64,000 nt of DNA from Chloroflexota bacterium (lineage in GTDB: Bacteria; Chloroflexota; UBA11872; UBA12225; JAJDUF01), in contig JAJDUF010000021.1 of NCBI GenBank assembly GCA_022826725.1, positions 41,853 to 105,852 on the forward strand, given 5' to 3'. The position numbers were made by a program, and so were the translations under genes. The first letter of the stretch is position 1. Each line of letters starts with the position of its first letter. Below are positions 1 to 12,274 of this stretch, piece after piece. The notes beneath the pieces were generated by a model that searched no databases, was not told where the DNA came from, and was given only the letters and a program-made list of their open reading frames with translations.

Positions 1-456
1 AAATAGGCTTCTAAATGTCGGGCGGTATTTGAGTTCTGGATTTTGGTTGGTAAGTCCAAACATCAACTCCCCTAACAGCGCATTCCAATCGTTGACGCCT
101 AGCGTCAGCATACTATTTCGGGGTTCGCTCGAAGCGCTCAGATCTCCGACTTCTCCGTCGACGTAGATGCGACTTGGATTATCTGTACTTCTGGTAATGG
201 TGAGCTTCCGGCCATTTATGCTCATGTCAAGCGTGAAACTCCACCCCTTCAGCGGTGTGACTAATAGGCCACGTTTACCGTAGGTTCGCGATCCAAGACA
301 AAAATGGATGATTTCAATCAGAGTAGTCTTACCGAGGCCATTCCTAGAGTCTCTCCTTGTGGAATCCTTCGTCCGGTCTGCCAACACAACATTGAACCCC
401 GGCTTAAACGCGACTGTTTTGAAAGAGGGCATGTTACAGCGAATCGCAATAATCAT
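1..456 (-). CDS. ABC/SMC-like ATPase of an ABC-three-component (ABC-3C)-like system, N-terminal 152 codons only (the gene runs off the window start)
   Basis: This is my own minus-strand translation; the ORF has no stop in the window and is absent from the ORF track. Sequence: MIIAIRCNMPSFKTVAFKPGFNVVLADRTKDSTRRDSRNGLGKTTLIEIIHFCLGSRTYGKRGLLVTPLKGWSFTLDMSINGRKLTITRSTDNPSRIYVDGE... It shows a Walker-A-like NGLGKTT after the beta-strand N-terminus typical of ABC/SMC ATPases. The ATG at 456-454 overlaps the TGA at 455-453 of the upstream gene. An alternative ATG lies at 432. Confidence 0.6.
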   Translation of the reverse strand, partial: MIIAIRCNMPSFKTVAFKPGFNVVLADRTKDSTRRDSRNGLGKTTLIEIIHFCLGSRTYGKRGLLVTPLKGWSFTLDMSINGRKLTITRSTDNPSRIYVDGEVGDLSASSEPRNSMLTLGVNDWNALLGELMFGLTNQNPELKYRPTFRSLF

Positions 457-683
457 CGAAGCGACCTACTTAAGAATCCATGGTTGTAGTCTATAGCCCC
501 AATCATATAAAGATAGTCAAGGGACAGTACAAAGCTGAGGAAATTTCCGACTTGCCGCTCATGCTTGACCGTTTCCCACAGGCTGCTCACAGATGATGGG
601 GATTCTAAGTGCTCAAGCAGCAGAGCGCCTGTCCCGACTAAGGAAAGACTGGTAGGAATATGCTTGTTGGGCAACAGCTTCAT
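453..683 (-). CDS. small 76-aa protein, candidate ABC-3C middle component
   Basis: The ORF sits between the HNH effector and the ATPase and shares ATGA start/stop overlaps with both (683/680 and 456/453). Its size and position fit the middle component of ABC-3C systems. I recognise no motif in it. Confidence 0.4.
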   Translation of the reverse strand: MKLLPNKHIPTSLSLVGTGALLLEHLESPSSVSSLWETVKHERQVGNFLSFVLSLDYLYMIGAIDYNHGFLSRSLR

Positions 684-1450
684 CGCTCGAAGACCTCACA
701 CCGTTCAAACAGGTACACTAAGACTGCTAAGCCTGCGCTTTGATATCGTATTTCCGATCTTCCTTGGCACGAAAACAACTGCATGGCATTAAACAGCGAA
801 TCACCTTCAAGGCCAGACCGCTTATGGCGACTATATTCCTCTACAAACCCAGATATTAATCTGTCTATAAATGTCCTGTCCAAGCTGCTCATTGTTTCGA
901 CGAAATCCTGGACTTGTTTGGACTGAAGTAGGCCAATATGTAAAAGAGATTCTGTTTGCTCTGTTAGTCCATTGCGACTCATCTTTGCCCTCGGCGGAAT
1001 GACGTCCATCGAAGTGGAGCGGGGTTCACTACTGTTCACTAGCGACTGTGTAACAGTTTCAAGCTCGGCAAGAGTGACGCTACCCATTTCTTGAGCTAGG
1101 AATTCGAGGCACCTTGTCTCCGTTTTCACCTTCCAGCCACGCATTACATCAACAGTGTAGGTATTGGGGCGAGCATCAGCAGTTTGGTGGTGGGTGGGAC
1201 ATAAGAGGATTAGATTAGAGTATGCATTGCGCTGCTGATCAGAGAGGGAGGGGTTTGCTCTCGGTCCAGCGTCGCTCTCTGCCTCAATGTGGGCGATGTG
1301 GCCAATTACGGCAGACTGGTCTTGGTTATTGGCTTCCCTGACCAACCTCTCATTACAACCAGGGAAGCAGCAGATGCCTCCAGAGCGCGACCACAGCAGA
1401 GCCCTGTCCGCGGATCTGTAGGATCTCCGACTGGAAGGAGACATAGGCAC
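680..1450 (-). CDS. HNH endonuclease with an additional ~150-aa C-terminal domain, candidate ABC-3C effector
   Basis: The N-terminal half carries an HNH signature: CCFPGC...IGHIAHIEA...NLILLCPTHH (CxxC, His, Asn, CxxHH). The C-terminal half (LAELETVTQ...FVEEYSRHKRSG...) has no motif I recognise. It is the first gene of the three-gene operon. Confidence 0.7.
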   Translation of the reverse strand: MPMSPSSRRSYRSADRALLWSRSGGICCFPGCNERLVREANNQDQSAVIGHIAHIEAESDAGPRANPSLSDQQRNAYSNLILLCPTHHQTADARPNTYTVDVMRGWKVKTETRCLEFLAQEMGSVTLAELETVTQSLVNSSEPRSTSMDVIPPRAKMSRNGLTEQTESLLHIGLLQSKQVQDFVETMSSLDRTFIDRLISGFVEEYSRHKRSGLEGDSLFNAMQLFSCQGRSEIRYQSAGLAVLVYLFERCEVFER

Positions 1451-1744
1451 TAGTCGCTCTGTCAGAATGGTGCCGCCGTGTGGACCTTGCTGCCCTGGTC
1501 GACGGCCACGTTCTCAAACGAAGTCGTTTACAAATGTCCCGCCGATCAGCGCTTCACAGGCAAGTCTCGGTCCTGATGGGGCAGTATACACTGTACCTAT
1601 GACCTATGGATTCGGAAGCCTCCTTGCCAATTGGTCTAAGAACCGTCGCTCCGGTGGACGTGGGGGCTTCCCGGAACCGGGACGGCTCGGCGAGGGTCCG
1701 GTACCCGATAGCCATCAACCGGACCGGACGCCCGGCCGCCGCCG

Positions 1745-5337: not shown

Positions 5338-6984
5338 GTGCGTATGGCGAATGGATACGCAGCAGGTGGAGTGCCCGGTCCGGGGGTGAGCTATGGCGCG
5401 AACGGCATGGTGGCCTCGCGGTCGAAACGGGCCGCGGCGGCCGGGCTGCACGTGCTCCAGCGCGGCGGCAACGCCTTTGACGCCGCCATCGCTGTTGCCG
5501 GCGTGGAGTGGCTGACGCTGCCGGCGATGTGTGGGTTAGGCGGGGATATGTTCGCCGTGCTCTACGACGCGCGCAATGACCGGCTGGCCGCGATCAACGG
5601 CAGCGGCGAGGCGGCGCGGCGGGCGTCCCGCGACTACTACGTGAGCCAGGGACTCCGCACGATGCCGCTCGACGGCTGGCACGCGGCGGCCGTGCCGGGC
5701 GCGCCGCACGCCTACGCCACGCTCAACCGCGAATTCGGCACCATCCCGCTCGCCGACCTGCTGGCTCCAGCGCTGGCCTACGCCGAGGGAGGCATCATCG
5801 TCTCCGAGGATATGAGCCGGACCATCGCCGGGGCAGCCGGCAAGCTGGGGCAGTTTGCCGACAGCGCGGCGCTGTACTTCCCCGGCGGGAGCGCGCCGCG
5901 CCCCGGCGACCGTTGGGTGCTGCCCGATCTGGCGCGGACCATCCGGGCCTATGCCAGCGGTGGTCCCGAGGCGTTCTACCGCGGCGCGGTCGCGGCGGAG
6001 ATCGTGCGGGCCTCCGAGGCCAGCGTTGGCCTCTTCGGGCTGGAGGAGTTTGCCGAGCAGACGACCGACGTGTACGAGCCGCTGCATACCCGCTATCGCG
6101 GCGTAGACGTGTACCAGACGGCGCCGCCGTCGCAGGGGCTGCTGGTGTTGGAGTGGCTGAACATCATCGCCAGCGACGACCTGCGCGCGCTCGGTTTCGG
6201 CTCGGCCGACACGCTGCATCTCCTGGTAGAGGCCAAGAAGCTGGCCTTCGCGGACCGCAACCGCTACTGCGGCGACCCGCGGCTCATCGCCAACCCGCTG
6301 AACGACCTCCTCTCCCCGCAGTACGCGGCCCAACGACGGGCGGCCATCCGTCCGGATCGCGCGAATGACGCGCCGATGGCGGGCGCGCTGCCGGAGCACG
6401 GCGGTGATACGAGCTACTTTGCCGTTGCGGACGGGCAGGGCAACGCGATCTCGTTCATCCATAGCCTCTCCAACCTATTCGGGTGTGGCGTGGTGGCCGG
6501 GAAGACGGGCGTGCTGCTCAACAACCGCGTCGGTCGCGGCTTCACGTTGGAGGAGGGGCATCCGAACGTGATCGCGGGCGGCAAGAAGACGATGCACACG
6601 CTCAACTGCTACCTGCTCTGCCGCGATGGCCGGCCGTTCGTCGTCGGGGGCACGCCCGGCGGCGACTACCAACCGCAGTGGAACGTGCAGACGATCACCA
6701 ACCTGCTCGATTTCGGCATGAACGTGCGGGAGGCGGTCGAGGCGCCGCGTTGGATCAGCGTGCCGGGCACCGACCCGGAGACGCTGGATGAACCGTTCGG
6801 CTTGATCGTCGAGGATCGCTTCGACCCGGACGTGCTGGCCGAGCTGGAACGCCGCGGGCATCGTGTCCGCCGAGCCGGCCCCTGGAGCAGCCCCGGCGCA
6901 CTCCAACTCATCATGTTCGGCGCGGACGGCACCCTGCAGGGCGGCAGCGACCCGCGCGGTGGCGGCGCCGCCCTGGGCTACTAA
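5338..6984 (+). CDS. ggt: gamma-glutamyltransferase
   Basis: GLGGDMFAVLYD, the autoprocessing and nucleophile site GGDTSYFAVADGQGN, and GGTPGG are all present. The start is either 5338 or the ATG at 5344. Confidence 0.9.
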   Translation: MRMANGYAAGGVPGPGVSYGANGMVASRSKRAAAAGLHVLQRGGNAFDAAIAVAGVEWLTLPAMCGLGGDMFAVLYDARNDRLAAINGSGEAARRASRDYYVSQGLRTMPLDGWHAAAVPGAPHAYATLNREFGTIPLADLLAPALAYAEGGIIVSEDMSRTIAGAAGKLGQFADSAALYFPGGSAPRPGDRWVLPDLARTIRAYASGGPEAFYRGAVAAEIVRASEASVGLFGLEEFAEQTTDVYEPLHTRYRGVDVYQTAPPSQGLLVLEWLNIIASDDLRALGFGSADTLHLLVEAKKLAFADRNRYCGDPRLIANPLNDLLSPQYAAQRRAAIRPDRANDAPMAGALPEHGGDTSYFAVADGQGNAISFIHSLSNLFGCGVVAGKTGVLLNNRVGRGFTLEEGHPNVIAGGKKTMHTLNCYLLCRDGRPFVVGGTPGGDYQPQWNVQTITNLLDFGMNVREAVEAPRWISVPGTDPETLDEPFGLIVEDRFDPDVLAELERRGHRVRRAGPWSSPGALQLIMFGADGTLQGGSDPRGGGAALGY

Positions 6985-7160
6985 GCCGGCGAACGCCCAA
7001 TCCGCCACAAAGGGCACAGGGATGGTGTGCTGCAACCTTGTGTCCGAGTAGCACGTTAAGAAAACTACTGTCAGCATCCCAATGCTGCGGTGTTTACTCG
7101 CCACTGTTGTAGCTATCCTTGTGCAGTTTTGCTACAGGATGGGTCATCCTAGGGGAGACT

Positions 7161-8033
7161 ATGGTCCAGACAACACAACATCAGCGAACAACGAGACAGT
7201 ATTACTCCAATCGGACTGGAAAGAATCCCAAATCCAAGTTAGACCTCCCTTTTTTCAGGAGGATTTTCCTCTCTGTATATCGTGACTTCGAAGATAGAGG
7301 TTATTTCCAAGAGTCGTTTGGATACTATTGTGTAGATGCAGGCGACCTTTCCGGAGAATTAGGCTCCAACCTAGAGGAGCATTTTCTTCGTGCGTTACGC
7401 AAATCTGACCTTTGGACAATCGAGGAAAGACATCAGCAGTACTCTGAGGACGACTTATTTGATGTAATTGAACTTCTCTGGGATTACGTATCTGGGCCAG
7501 TTGATGGTTATTACCATGCATATGGCGACTGCGGTTGGCACTACGAGGAATTTGATAGACAGAAGGGAAGAGATGAGTACCGCTCCGTGATGAATGAGCA
7601 ACTGAGAGACTACGGGCAGGGCTACGAGCTATCGGATCAGGGCGAGATTCGACCTTTGCCACCACCTGGCATGGCGCAACTCTTTGAAGCGCAAGTGCCA
7701 ACGGACGATGAGAATAAAAAGCGAGTCGAGGCGGCCATCCATAAGTTCCGGGGGCGTGACTCGTCAATAGACGACCGCCGCCATGCTGTGAGAGACTTAG
7801 CTGATGTCCTAGAGTTCCTACGTCCCAAGGTGAAAAGCATATTGACCAAGAAGGATGAGAGGGATTTGTTTGAGCTTGCCAATCGGTTTGGTATACGGCA
7901 CAACAACGAGCGGCAGCTAATCCAGTATGACCCGGCTATCTGGTTGAGTTGGATGTTCTACTATTACCTCGCTTCCATCCACGCATTGACCCGGCTGCTC
8001 GAGAAGCGAGAGCAGGATGAAGGATTGCTGTGA
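7161..8033 (+). CDS. hypothetical 290-aa protein with a C-terminal Rx4H (HEPN-like) motif, AbiJ-like in size and layout
   Basis: The ATG at 7161 is preceded by AGGGGAG (7151-7157). The C-terminal region FELANRFGIRHNNERQ contains R242-x4-H247 (nt 7884-7901), followed by a hydrophobic helix. I recognise no other family motif. The TGA overlaps the ATG of the next gene (8030-8033). Confidence 0.5.
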   Translation: MVQTTQHQRTTRQYYSNRTGKNPKSKLDLPFFRRIFLSVYRDFEDRGYFQESFGYYCVDAGDLSGELGSNLEEHFLRALRKSDLWTIEERHQQYSEDDLFDVIELLWDYVSGPVDGYYHAYGDCGWHYEEFDRQKGRDEYRSVMNEQLRDYGQGYELSDQGEIRPLPPPGMAQLFEAQVPTDDENKKRVEAAIHKFRGRDSSIDDRRHAVRDLADVLEFLRPKVKSILTKKDERDLFELANRFGIRHNNERQLIQYDPAIWLSWMFYYYLASIHALTRLLEKREQDEGLL

Positions 8034-8221
8034 TGGCGTTACGTGAGCAATATGTCGTTGACGGTGATGGGAAGCGCACGGCTGTCATTCTGCCCATAGA
8101 GCAATACGAGCGGCTGCTGGAAGACTTGCACGATCTGGCCGTGATAGCGGAGCGTCGGGGCGAGGAACTGGTTAGCCTAGAGGATATGAAGCGACAGCTA
8201 CTGGAGGACGGCCTGCTTTAG
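8030..8221 (+). CDS. Phd/YefM-family type II antitoxin-like protein
   Basis: MMALREQYVVDGDGKRTAVILPIEQYERLLEDLHDLAVIAERRGEELVSLEDMKRQL matches the usual Phd/YefM pattern: a beta strand, then the EEYERLLE helix, then an acidic tail. It shares a 4-nt ATGA overlap with the upstream gene. Confidence 0.7.
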   Translation: MMALREQYVVDGDGKRTAVILPIEQYERLLEDLHDLAVIAERRGEELVSLEDMKRQLLEDGLL

Positions 8222-8297
8222 CTGGCGTACTTGCTCAAGCTCCTGCTCTAGTTCCTCTGCACTGCCGAGGAACCGCCAGAAGGGAAGGCGCCTCCCC

Positions 8298-9368: not shown

Positions 9369-9373
9369 GGGTT

Positions 9374-9540
9374 GGACCTAACCCCCGGCCCCTTCCCTCC
9401 AGGGAAGGGGAGTCCAGTTTCCGCTTTTCGCGGGAATGACGGGCGGACAGCCCTTTCCCTCAGAGCAAGTGAGCCATCAGCACGCCCCTTCGCCCCTTCC
9501 CTTCAGGGAGGGGGTTGGGGTAGGTCTATTCGCCTCACCC
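9374..9540. repeat. dispersed hairpin repeat copies (CCCCTTCCCT..AGGGAAGGGG / GGGGTTAGGTCC variant)
   Basis: ggacctaacccccggccccttccctccagggaaggggag (9374-9412) is the inverted form of the copy at 17368-17408. A second copy, ccccttcccttcagggagggggttggggtaggtc, lies at 9493-9526. Confidence 0.75.
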
Positions 9541-9541
9541 G

Positions 9542-10522
9542 CTATAGCAGGCCGTCGTCCGCGGCTCGCTGCAGGACCACCTCGGCCAGCTTGCGGCTCG
9601 CCTCGTCCAGCATCTCCTCGCCGTCGAGGGCGACTGCGCCCAGCCCCTCTTCCTCCGTCGCCTGGAAGTAGCGGTCGCGGATGGCAGTGGCCTTGGCGAT
9701 CTCCGCTTCGGACGGAGAGAACACTTCATTCAGGACGGGAATCTGCGCCGGATGCACGGCCCACTTCCCATCGCAGCCCAGCATTTTGGCCATCTGCGCC
9801 GAGTTCCGCAGCCCCTCCAGATCGCGGAACTTGCCGAACGGGCCGTCAATGGTCTGCAAGCCGGCGGCTTTGGCGGCCGTGACAATCCGCTGGAGCGCGA
9901 AGTGGTAGATGTGGCCGGGGTAGGCGAAATCGTGTGCCCCGATGGATAGCACGGGCATGTCGGCGTAGGCGGCGTAGTCGCCGGGGCCGAACACGAGCGC
10001 GATCAGCCGCTTGCTGGCGAAGGCGATCTTCTCGACGCTGGAGATCCCGTTGGCATTCTCGATCTGCGCTTCGATCCCGATGGTATGGGTCAGGCCGAGC
10101 TGCTGTTCGAGGGAGGTCAACATAATATCTAGGGCGGCCACGTCCTCGGGACCGCGCGTCTTGGGCAGCATGATGGCTTCCAGCTTGGCACCGGCGCCCT
10201 CCACCACGTCTACCACGTCGCGCACGGCCCATTGCGTGGACAGGTCGTTAATCCGCACGACCGTGGCCTTGTCGCCGAAGTCGTTCTCGTTCAACGCTTG
10301 GACAATCCTTGCCCGCGAGGCCACCTTTTCGCTCGGCGCGACGGAGTCCTCCAGGTCAAGGAACACGGCGTCCGCGTCGCTGTTCGCTGCCCCGGCCATC
10401 ATGCGCGGGTTGCTGCCGGGCACGGCCAGCTCCGAGCGACGGCGGCGCGCCGGGCGCGGTGGCGCCGGGCGCCAACTCAGCGGGGGGCCGTCGTAAGGGC
10501 TGCCAGGAACCTGTTTTGTCAT
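9542..10522 (-). CDS. HpcH/HpaI aldolase / citrate lyase beta-subunit-like protein (CitE / malyl-CoA lyase family)
   Basis: RSELAVPGSNPRMM...DAVFLDLEDSVAP...IEAQIE...GPGDY...GKWAVHPAQI are hallmark CitE-family segments. Confidence 0.85.
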   Translation of the reverse strand: MTKQVPGSPYDGPPLSWRPAPPRPARRRRSELAVPGSNPRMMAGAANSDADAVFLDLEDSVAPSEKVASRARIVQALNENDFGDKATVVRINDLSTQWAVRDVVDVVEGAGAKLEAIMLPKTRGPEDVAALDIMLTSLEQQLGLTHTIGIEAQIENANGISSVEKIAFASKRLIALVFGPGDYAAYADMPVLSIGAHDFAYPGHIYHFALQRIVTAAKAAGLQTIDGPFGKFRDLEGLRNSAQMAKMLGCDGKWAVHPAQIPVLNEVFSPSEAEIAKATAIRDRYFQATEEEGLGAVALDGEEMLDEASRKLAEVVLQRAADDGLL

Positions 10523-10594
10523 TGCCTATCCCTTCCTCGTGTCTTGTCCTGCTCCCCCGTACCAGGTGTAGGCGAGGGCTTTGTGTCGTTCTAA

Positions 10595-12274
10595 CTATGT
10601 GACCGCGCCGACTGCTGCCGAGCTTACCAAACGCGCATACTTCGAGAGCATTCCCGACTGATACCTTGGCGTCGGCTCCTCCCAGGCAGCGAGGCGTGCC
10701 TGAAGCTCCTCGTCCGAGAGCCGCACACTTAGCTCTCGGTTCGGAATGTCAATCTCGATCACGTCACCTTCGCGCAGCACCGCGATTGGGCCGCCGACGG
10801 CTGCCTCCGGCGCCATGTGCGCGATCATCAAGCCGTAGGTGGCGCCGGAGAAGCGCCCGTCGGTCATCAGCGCGACGTGATCGCCGAGGCCACGCCCTTG
10901 GATGGCCGCCGTCACAGCCAGCATTTCGCGCATCCCCGGCCCGCCTTTCGGCCCCTCGTTGCGAATGACGACCACGTCGCCTTTGCGAATATCGCCGGCG
11001 AGCACGGCCTCGAAACAGGCTTCCTCGCCGTCGAACACTCGCGCCGGTCCGCTGAAGGTGCTGTGGGCGGCCCCGCCGACCTTGGCGACGGCGCCGTCCG
11101 CGGCGATATTGCCGCGCAGGATGGCCAGCGTGCCGGTCGCGCTGAGGGGGCGGTCCAGCGCAAAGGTGAGGTCCTGGTCCGGCTTTTCGCGGACCCGATT
11201 CAGGTGGTCGCCGAGCGTTCCACCGGCGACGTTGGGCGTGGTGCCGTCAATGATTCCGCCGTCGAGCAGCTCTTTCATCACGACCGGCACGCCGCCGACC
11301 ACGTCGAGATCGGCCATGACGTACTTTCCGGACGGCTTCAGGCTGGCCAAGTGTGGCGTGCGGTGACTGATCTCGTCGAAGTCCTCCAGCCGGAGGTCTA
11401 CGCCGGCTTCATACGCAATCGCCATCAGGTGCAGCACCGCGTTGGTCGAGCCGCCGAGCGCTTCCACGGTAGCGATGGCGTTGAGGAAGGCTTCGCGGGT
11501 GAGGAAGTCGCGCGGACGGATGTCCTCGCGCAAGAGCTGCATCACCCGCTCGCCGGCTTGAAAGGCCACCACCTGACGCCGCGCGTCAACGGCCGGGATG
11601 GATGCGCTGCCCGGGGGGGCCATCCCCAACGCCTCGGCCGCCGCGGCCATCGTGTTCGCGGTGAACATGCCCCCGCAGGCGCCGGCGCCGGGGCACGCCC
11701 GGCCGACGAGTTCGTCCACGTCCTCTTCGGACATCTCACCCCTGGCATGGAGGCCGGGTGCTTCGAACGAATCCTGAATCGTGACCTTCCGGCCGCGGTA
11801 GATACCGGGCATGATGCTGCCGCCGTACACGTAGACGCCGGGGATGTTCAGGCGCGCCAGGGCCATCAGGCCACCCGGCTGCGTCTTGTCGCACCCGGTC
11901 AGGGTCACTATCCCGTCGAGGCGGTGCCCAGTCACGACCAGCTCGATGGAGTCGGCAATCACTTCGCGGCTGACGAGCGAGGCGCGCATCCCCTCGGTAC
12001 CCATGGCAATGCCGTCGGTGACGCAGATGGTCCCGAACTCGATTGGCGTGCCGCCGGCCGCGCGGATGCCCTCCTTGACCTTCTCGGCGAGGTCGCGCAA
12101 GTTGAGTTGGCAGGGGGTCACGTCGGTCCAGGTATTGGCGATGCCGATGATCGGCTTCCGCAGGTCTTCCTCGCTGAGGCCGGTGCCTCGAAACATCGAG
12201 CGCGCCGCGGCGTGCTCGACGCCCATCGTCACTTCGCGACTCCGCGCTTTCACGTCAACGGCCGTTGCTGCCAT
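10595..12274 (-). CDS. ilvD: dihydroxy-acid dehydratase
   Basis: [35 protein letters not shown] and MTDGRFSG are present. The ATG at 12274 is preferred because AAGGA lies about 10 nt upstream. An alternative ATG lies at 12283. Confidence 0.93.

Follow-up and report, generated by a model that had tools for sequence, protein, structure and literature searches.

A complete lmuA-lmuC-lmuB operon in a Chloroflexota genome probably encodes a short type II Lamassu system whose effector is an HNH nuclease

The window that we analyzed, a stretch of 64,000 nucleotides from contig JAJDUF010000021.1 of a Chloroflexota bacterium, begins inside a cluster of three minus-strand genes that occupies positions 1 to 1450. 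We conclude, with a probability of about 0.85, that this cluster is a complete lmuA-lmuC-lmuB operon encoding a Lamassu system (short form, type II, class CTD10/MC6/DUF2326) with an HNH nuclease as effector, and that it acts by the mechanism outlined below. Several papers equate the ABC-three-component (ABC-3C) systems with the type II Lamassu systems (LmuA-LmuC-LmuB) and with DdmABC. The initial annotation, made from the sequence of the window, proposed the cluster as a candidate ABC-3C system, and the family matches and fold ranking described below (MC6, CTD10, PDC-M68A, PDC-M68B, and the LmuB fold) uphold that identity. Its statement that these systems are essentially untested is out of date: since 2022, experiments have demonstrated defence against phages and plasmids by members of the family, and structures have been solved by cryo-electron microscopy (cryo-EM).

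The first gene in the direction of transcription, lmuA (680..1450, minus strand), encodes the effector, an HNH nuclease with a CTD10 coupling domain; the list of open reading frames (ORFs) gives 256 residues from a GTG at 1450, and translation more likely starts at the ATG at 1444, which yields 254 residues and is also the start called in a second contig, L001 (vide infra). It is followed by lmuC (453..683, minus strand), which encodes the 76-residue MC6 middle component (ORF list and Pfam PF20293), and by the 5' part of lmuB (1..456, minus strand; read by translation), that is, the first 152 of the 580 codons for an ABC ATPase that resembles Rad50 and the SMC (structural maintenance of chromosomes) proteins. 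Both junctions are ATGA overlaps of a stop and a start codon and read TCAT on the plus strand: the lmuA stop and lmuC start share 680..683, implying translational coupling of lmuA and lmuC, and the lmuC stop and lmuB start share 453..456. From 456, the lmuB frame continues without a stop as far as the window edge; its 152-residue translation starts MIIAIRCNMPSFKTVAFKPGFNVVLADRTKDSTRRDSRNGLGKTT. The initial annotation had read the locus in the same way, that is, as three minus-strand genes chained by two ATGA overlaps (683/680 and 456/453), the second encoding 76 residues and the third encoding a Walker A ATPase (NGLGKTT) cut by the window edge.

The rest of the ATPase gene, which the initial annotation had left to be recovered, is found in the second contig. 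An exact look-up of the 76-residue protein identifies a 7,096-base Logan contig (L001); the same look-up with the 256-residue protein (GTG start) gives no record. L001 agrees with the window at all 2,265 overlapping aligned bases and extends ~4 kb past window position 1; because the overlap is perfect, the window's own contig presumably continues as in L001. The full lmuB is located at L001:2580-4322 and encodes 580 residues, so the gene is complete, with no truncation outside the window. Homologous clusters are numerous (326 for LmuA and 1831 for LmuB, counted as 90 %-identity clusters with E<=1e-5), which shows the ORFs to be real genes.

Each of the three proteins belongs to a profiled family. 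LmuC matches Pfam PF20293 (MC6, ABC-3C middle component 6) with an E-value of 6.5e-17 and 61.7 bits (cut-off, 27.2), so the short second ORF is, as had been anticipated, an ABC-3C middle component; a homolog of 73-90 residues is encoded between lmuA and lmuB in related loci, and the homologs encoded by plasmids are named 'ABC-three component system middle component 6' in RefSeq. When the PADLOC models are run on the proteins of the locus, LmuA matches PDC-M68A (E 6.9e-85; its residues 10-255 align with positions 4-251 of the 253 in the profile) and LmuB matches PDC-M68B (E 3.5e-200; its residues 1-580 align with positions 1-581, the whole of the profile), that is, adjacent genes match both models end to end. 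The next PADLOC matches of LmuB are the LmuB models (E 3.3e-11), and LmuB also matches Pfam DUF2326 (E 1e-38); its nearest homolog is 91 % identical, and JGI names its homologs 'YydD (DUF2326 family)'. We read the PADLOC label PDC as "phage defence candidate"; the source that we consulted uses the term PDC and is silent on PDC-M68, and literature searches for 'PDC-M68' and 'DUF2326' returned nothing relevant. PADLOC models two of the three genes of PDC-M68, and its label denotes a candidate system, not validated defence.

The sequence of LmuB retains the residues expected for nucleotide binding. The Walker A motif (P-loop), SRNGLGKTT, is located at residues 37-45 (322..348, minus strand), and 18 diverse LmuB homologs all share its N39, G42, and K43; the signature serine (S476) and V515 and D516 of the D-loop are also conserved in these homologs. 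The Walker B motif is LLIHDS, with H507, D508, and S509 invariant in the 18 homologs and with no catalytic Glu. A helical region (~170-450) separates the two halves of the ATPase head, and residues 474-519 contain the signature motif, the Walker B motif, and the D-loop; a direct reading of the sequence reveals no CxxC zinc hook in the coiled coil.

We then compared the fold of LmuB with those in the PDB (Foldseek), using a model of the 91 %-identical LmuB (mean predicted local distance difference test score, pLDDT, of 65.5). The best match is YydD from Bacillus subtilis (586 residues, E 2.3e-19), followed by LmuB from the type I LmuAB-DNA complex (1.2e-9), the type II LmuACB with DNA (3.4e-9), and, in fourth and fifth place, the Salmonella LmuACB (1.8e-7 and 7e-7); Rad50, cohesin, Smc5/6, and JetC are located at rank 6 and below, with AriA 19th and RecN 33rd. 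Thus, LmuB from four entries for solved Lamassu complexes outranks the Rad50 and SMC proteins, and no PtuA or GajA chain is found in the top 50 matches. The TM-scores of these matches are low (0.3-0.4), as expected because coiled coils are flexible, so the evidence is the ranking, not the superposition.

The N-terminal part of LmuA is an HNH (His-Me finger) nuclease domain (residues ~10-125; 1076..1423, minus strand), as supported by the homolog alignment and by sequence and fold matches in the PDB. The homologs of LmuA are mostly 253-254 residues in length, and the nearest is 77 % identical. In an alignment of 32 LmuA homologs, C27, C32, H54, N79, C84, H87, and H88 are invariant; by analogy with Cap5 and SPARHA, C27, C32, C84, and H87 are predicted to be zinc ligands and H54, N79, and H88 are predicted to be catalytic. 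The HNH signature proposed in the initial annotation is therefore real, with these seven invariant residues, although its first zinc motif is CCFPGC (C27-x4-C32) rather than CxxC; also, the C-terminal extension, estimated at about 150 residues, is shorter, ~128 residues (129-256). The solved protein nearest in sequence to the HNH domain is the SPARHA HNH (9OM4, E 6e-25), followed by Cap5 (1e-8 to 1e-6), and the N-terminal 110 residues of LmuA match the PADLOC profiles for the HNH-SAVED effectors of CBASS. In an AlphaFold2 model of LmuA, the HNH domain has a pLDDT of 79-94, and Foldseek ranks the activated Cap5 tetramer (8fmf), together with entries related to it, first in the PDB (E 5e-5, probability 1.0). 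Judged from both the sequence and the model, the HNH domain of the effector is a member of the Cap5/SPARHA clade.

The C-terminal part of LmuA (residues 129-255; 686..1066, minus strand) is the all-helical CTD10 coupling domain (Pfam PF20275), which contains 19 columns that are invariant in the 32 homologs and ends in a near-invariant motif, AGLAVLVYLFERCEVFE. The match to CTD10 covers the whole profile (positions 2-134 of 134, E 1.7e-4), with a score below the cut-off for the protein from the window; 23 of the 32 homologs match at E<=1e-3 (best E, 7e-7), and the homolog from Aeromicrobium (L050) scores 48.4 bits. The coupling domain that had been suggested for the extension is thus recovered, and its assignment to CTD10 is firmer at the level of the family than for this LmuA alone. 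The predicted role of CTD10 is docking to LmuB and LmuC and, once LmuA has been released, self-association.

The Pfam CTD10 model also matches residues 290-384 of LmuB, in the coiled-coil arm (L001:3447-3731), with 38.6 bits, that is, above the cut-off and higher than the 22.6 bits for LmuA itself; this match is precomputed on nearly all LmuB homologs. An hhalign comparison of the LmuA and LmuB families detects no relation (probability 0.2 %), and the match in the arm is probably an artefact of helical bias in the Pfam model.

Haudiquet et al. divided Lamassu into long and short forms; in the short form, LmuB averages 600 residues, the Walker B motif is hhhhD[Q/S/T/E] rather than hhhhDE/DD, and there are zero to two zinc hooks. 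The same authors list HNH among the effectors that are specific to short Lamassu and mention a short clade that lacks an effector. The operon in the window has these hallmarks: its LmuB has 580 residues, its Walker B motif is LLIHDS, and a zinc hook is absent, as in some of the short clades. It also has the general features of Lamassu/ABC-3C, that is, an SMC/Rad50-like ATPase with a coiled-coil insert, a middle component, an effector in which an enzyme is joined to a C-terminal domain (CTD), and the order lmuA-lmuC-lmuB on one strand.

Scanning one genome per species, we located 77 related loci. The closest (55-70 % identity) are found in metagenome-assembled genomes of Dehalococcoidia/Chloroflexota; the other bacterial loci are found in Acidobacteriota, Planctomycetota, Omnitrophota, Nitrospirae, cyanobacteria, and an Aeromicrobium isolate, and the archaeal loci are found in Methanothrix, Promethearchaeota and Heimdallarchaeota (Asgard), Bathyarchaeia, and Nitrosopumilaceae. 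The same architecture is retained across these phyla: 64 of the 77 loci contain the intact triad on one strand (lmuA, a gene of ~75 codons, and a gene of ~580 codons), and the genes share an NTGA overlap at the first junction in 61 and at the second junction in 50 of these 64 loci. The chassis is modular, with an effector swap in two loci from Planctomycetota (L061 and L066), in which PNP_UDP_1 is joined to CTD10 on the CTD10/MC6/LmuB chassis; in both, LmuA has 425 residues (L061:5143-6420 and L066:3313-4590), and its PNP_UDP_1 domain is nucleoside phosphorylase/MTAN-like. In the cyanobacteria (Microcoleus, Nostoc, and Scytonema; L054-L075, lmuA at ~5790-6430), LmuA starts with ~100 helical residues that include no recognized enzyme domain; these forms may be the effector-less short-Lamassu clade of Haudiquet et al.

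Homologs of LmuB are also encoded by 47 plasmids, 25 of which are predicted to be conjugative or mobilizable and for which RefSeq already uses the ABC-3C names; phage records contain no LmuB homolog. On the conjugative plasmid NZ_CP102430 of Pseudomonas psychrotolerans, a triad annotated in RefSeq as HNH, MC6, and DUF2326 (9371-12080) is located directly downstream of the gene encoding the MobF relaxase and adjoins type IV secretion genes; its LmuA is a full-length homolog of that in the window (32 % identity, E 2e-46), and the triad is a tractable homolog.

Decayed copies are present in four related Dehalococcoidia genomes (L010, L012, L045, and L046). In L012 (7580-10008), lmuB is split by ~2.4 kb that contains transposase-like ORFs, which, from a reading of their translations, look like IS630-type proteins in two parts, a helix-turn-helix part and a DDE part; in L010 (6775-7910), a similar element is located between a 5'-truncated lmuA and lmuC. 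In L045 and L046 (both 6001-6640), lmuA is reduced to its last 95 codons (78 % identical to those in the window) and is accompanied by an lmuC-like ORF, with no lmuB.

The operon in the window is also distinguished by a foreign base composition. The G+C content (GC) is 0.46-0.48 in 1-1250 and 0.62-0.70 beyond 1500; for the whole module it is 0.502 and for the flanks 0.658. The border of the islet is located in the intergenic region 5' of lmuA (1451..1744, minus strand in the ORF list), which extends to the stop of a host Amidohydro_2 gene, is the presumed site of the operon promoter, and in which the GC rises from ~0.47 to ~0.60. The low-GC insert is ~2.9 kb in length and contains exactly lmuA, lmuC, and lmuB. 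The initial annotation had put the deficit at about 20 %; the islet is indeed low in GC, and the measured gap, 15-18 points, is close to that figure. Of 68 loci, 62 have a module that is lower in GC than its flanks (median, -6.3 points), and the gap for the locus in the window exceeds those of all 68.

Horizontal acquisition, also proposed in the initial annotation, is supported because the GC gap is accompanied by a phyletic spread that includes unrelated phyla and archaea and by carriage on plasmids; an exact empty site was not found. Using the flanking Amidohydro_2 gene, we identified 16 relatives in metagenomes (62-84 % identity), none of which has lmu genes, but none of which keeps the Ldh_2 neighbor either. 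As to signs of site-specific integration, no direct repeats bracket the insert, no tRNA gene is located within 33 kb, and no integrase is encoded in the flanks.

In L001, lmuB is followed by a convergent host gene (Ldh_2) and then by a PemK/MazF toxin-antitoxin pair; the latter is located ~1.3 kb past the end of lmuB (L001:5621-6264) and is composed of a 96-residue ORF and a 118-residue toxin of the PemK/MazF family that overlap by 4 bp, neither of which matches any PADLOC model. The sole other low-GC islet in the 64 kb of the window (7050-8230; GC ~0.47-0.52 compared with ~0.66) is located 5.6 kb from the Lamassu operon and contains two ORFs on the plus strand, again with a 4-bp overlap. The first (7119..8033) encodes 304 residues, and its matches, both weak, are AbiJ_NTD4 (E 0.004, under the cut-off) and PDC-S32, a PADLOC candidate (E 4.5e-5); the second (8030..8221) encodes a 63-residue RelB-like/Phd-YefM antitoxin (E 3.5e-9). 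From these matches, the islet looks like a second small acquired module, either toxin-antitoxin or Abi-like.

Several points weigh against the assignment of the operon to short type II Lamassu with the mechanism that we propose. The literature that we searched includes no experiment on an HNH/CTD10/MC6 system, so the activity and trigger of this class are extrapolated; the complexes that have been solved use other families (CTD7/MC3 and CTD12). The PADLOC models for LmuC give no match to the 76-residue protein, and the CTD10 score for LmuA (22.6 bits) is under the Pfam cut-off of 28.1. In the AlphaFold2 model, the CTD10 part is helical and has low confidence (pLDDT 41-66); the Foldseek matches of this model are via the HNH domain only, with no match to the CTD of a solved LmuA. 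HMMER searches of the PDB with LmuB, LmuC, and an 18-member LmuB profile retrieved only coiled-coil noise (such as gp41, protein L, and occludin), so the link to the solved Lamassu complexes is by fold comparison only. In LmuA, a variable position seems to correspond to the glutamate that bridges the HNH dimers of SPARHA and Cap5, as judged by reading the PDB matches, the SPARHA paper, and the alignment of 32 homologs rather than by computation. As to expression in this organism, a scan for a promoter and terminator gave no signal above the shuffled expectation.

If the cluster were instead a housekeeping module for DNA repair (a relative of SbcCD, Rad50-Mre11, RecN, or RecF), the resemblance of the LmuB fold to Rad50, SbcC, and RecN would be explained; Lamassu is itself thought to be descended from SbcCD, the type of complex that has been proposed as its ancestor, and both Lamassu and SbcCD/Rad50-Mre11 recognize DNA ends and have Rad50-like ABC heads split by a coiled coil. 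However, the coiled coil of LmuB is much shorter and lacks the CxxC zinc hook, and its Walker B motif is degenerate, without the catalytic Glu. Also, the nuclease is an unrelated HNH protein coupled via CTD10 and MC6 instead of an Mre11/SbcD phosphoesterase; the match to RecF (TIGR00611) has an E-value of 0.12 and 11.5 bits (cut-off, 172), with no match to SbcC or to any other NCBIfam family, and RecN ranks only 33rd by fold. The genes are mobile and patchily distributed across phyla and plasmids, with a GC 15 points below that of the host, and in related genomes the module is disrupted by insertions with transposase-like ORFs. We therefore reject a RecF/RecN/SbcC repair ATPase and regard a housekeeping module as highly improbable. 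The pairing of an HNH nuclease with an ABC-type ATPase also occurs in the defence system Septu, and LmuA has a weak PADLOC match to PtuB (E 0.021), so the cluster could be imagined as a PtuA-PtuB pair with an incidental small ORF. We consider the probability of this reading to be negligible: neither the ATPase nor the middle gene fits. The PtuA models and Pfam AAA_15 give no match to the ATPase, and AAA_21 gives E 0.047, below its cut-off, whereas PDC-M68B matches it at 3.5e-200 and PDC-M68A matches LmuA at 6.9e-85; the small ORF encodes a conserved MC6 protein kept in 64 of the 77 loci; the fold search ranks YydD and LmuB first, with a different ATPase architecture and no PtuA in the top 50; and the HNH domain is from another clade, that of Cap5 and SPARHA. 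Gabija/OLD is likewise rejected, given that PADLOC and Pfam detect no GajA, OLD, or TOPRIM and that the nuclease is HNH. Neither by profile nor by fold, then, is the ATPase of the PtuA/AAA_15, OLD/Gabija, or RecF/SbcC type, the types that the initial annotation had named as incompatible with ABC-3C.

The remaining alternatives accept a Lamassu-type machine and differ in what it does in the cell. The operon might have been transferred and now be an inactive relic, silent or nonfunctional in this host; its GC is far from that of the host, no promoter or terminator is recognizable, and decayed copies are found in Dehalococcoidia (L010, L012, L045, and L046). In the window, however, all three frames are intact and full length, both coupling overlaps are kept, and all of the invariant catalytic, zinc-binding, and nucleotide-binding residues are retained, so we assign only a slim chance to a relic. 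A main role in the competition between mobile elements, in which the machine would exclude plasmids or stabilize its carrier much as DdmABC acts on plasmids, is in keeping with the carriage of homologs on 47 plasmids (25 of them predicted to be conjugative or mobilizable, and one with the triad beside mobF and type IV secretion genes), with their absence from phage records, and with the toxin-antitoxin-like modules near the operon; in addition, DdmABC of Vibrio acts on plasmids as well as on phages. We consider such a main role unlikely, although with a probability that deserves mention: the module in the window is chromosomal, located amid metabolic genes with no adjoining plasmid or integrase genes, and the Lamassu systems that have been tested protect against phages. 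The two roles are compatible.

For the short type II Lamassu assignment that we favor, the solved complexes provide a template for the mechanism. As established by cryo-EM for systems from Vibrio, Salmonella, and Bacillus, an LmuA1-B2-C1 complex buries the CTD of the effector and binds DNA ends; the release of LmuA depends on ATP, and the freed LmuA assembles into an active tetramer. The SPARHA paper describes an HNH clade, in which effectors of ABC-3C systems are explicitly included, that is probably activated by tetramerization as Cap5 is. By analogy, in the system in the window the short coiled coils of two LmuB protomers would wrap around one LmuC and around CTD10 of a single LmuA, and this hold by LmuB2-LmuC would keep the HNH nuclease monomeric and inactive. 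The complex would bind DNA ends or other aberrant DNA of a replicating phage or plasmid; ATP-driven engagement of the heads, which would be slow because the Walker B motif (LLIHD-S) lacks the catalytic Glu, would then release LmuA. Free LmuA would self-associate via CTD10 and probably also via the helix at the N terminus of the HNH domain, in the manner of Cap5 and SPARHA, and would thereby form a composite active site that cuts DNA nonspecifically; the infected cell would die or arrest, or the plasmid would be lost. A departure of the CTD10/MC6/DUF2326 branch from the Vibrio/Salmonella mechanism, that is, a different nucleic-acid cue or stoichiometry, is conceivable, the divergence being such that HMMER connects the branch with no solved Lamassu protein; we regard this departure as the lesser, although a real, possibility.

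The characterized short type II Lamassu systems (DdmABC from V. cholerae and LmuACB from Salmonella enterica; PDB 9hqu, 9hqx, and 9uxh) have the same gene order (effector, middle component, and SMC-like ATPase), an LmuB of ~600 residues whose coiled coil is short and whose Walker B motif lacks the catalytic Glu, and an effector in which an N-terminal enzyme precedes a helical C-terminal docking domain; their LmuB chains are among the top five fold matches. They differ in the nuclease (Cap4/PD-(D/E)xK instead of HNH) and in the coupling families (CTD7/MC3 instead of CTD10/MC6), and HMMER detects no similarity to the solved chains. The ABC-3C class with CTD10 and MC6, PDC-M68, and the triad on NZ_CP102430 share with the operon in the window the same three proteins, order, and overlaps; what distinguishes the latter is a new sequence (77 % identity to the nearest LmuA and 91 % to the nearest LmuB) and its location on the chromosome of a high-GC genome.

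Two further comparisons involve single components. In B. subtilis the partner of YydD is YydB, which we take to be of the phosphoesterase type and not an HNH nuclease. YydD (DUF2326; modeled with YydB in PDB 9a6c) is the best fold match to the ATPase, with a sequence identity of only 18 %. The effectors of CBASS (Cap5, HNH-SAVED) and SPARHA (HNH-APAZ with a short Argonaute) contain an HNH domain of the same subfamily as LmuA, become active as tetramers, and are inactive until a sensor module permits their assembly, as we would expect for LmuA by analogy. In the operon described here, the regulatory module is CTD10 with LmuB and LmuC, not SAVED and not Argonaute, and a tetramer of LmuA is a prediction from those systems.

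Much about the system was already in hand: its architecture was predicted in 2020, has been profiled in Pfam and PADLOC, is included in the 2025 classification of Lamassu, and is named in RefSeq plasmids, so the addition to the field is small. At the level of this genome, the outcome is a clear annotation: a 2.9-kb foreign insert with a complete HNH Lamassu system and small toxin-antitoxin-like inserts nearby. For the HNH subtype, the copies in cultivable hosts (the Pseudomonas conjugative plasmid, Aeromicrobium, and Agrobacterium) are easier to work with than that in an uncultured one, and they could be used to ask whether "sequester, release, oligomerize" extends to HNH effectors and whether these assemble like Cap5 and SPARHA. 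On the less probable reading, in which the CTD10/MC6/DUF2326 branch departs from the Vibrio/Salmonella mechanism, the same logic of nuclease activation would have been recruited independently by cyclic-nucleotide SAVED domains, by Argonaute, and by an SMC-like ATPase, and the spread of the system to Asgard, Methanothrix, and Nitrosopumilaceae archaea would provide an example that crosses domains.

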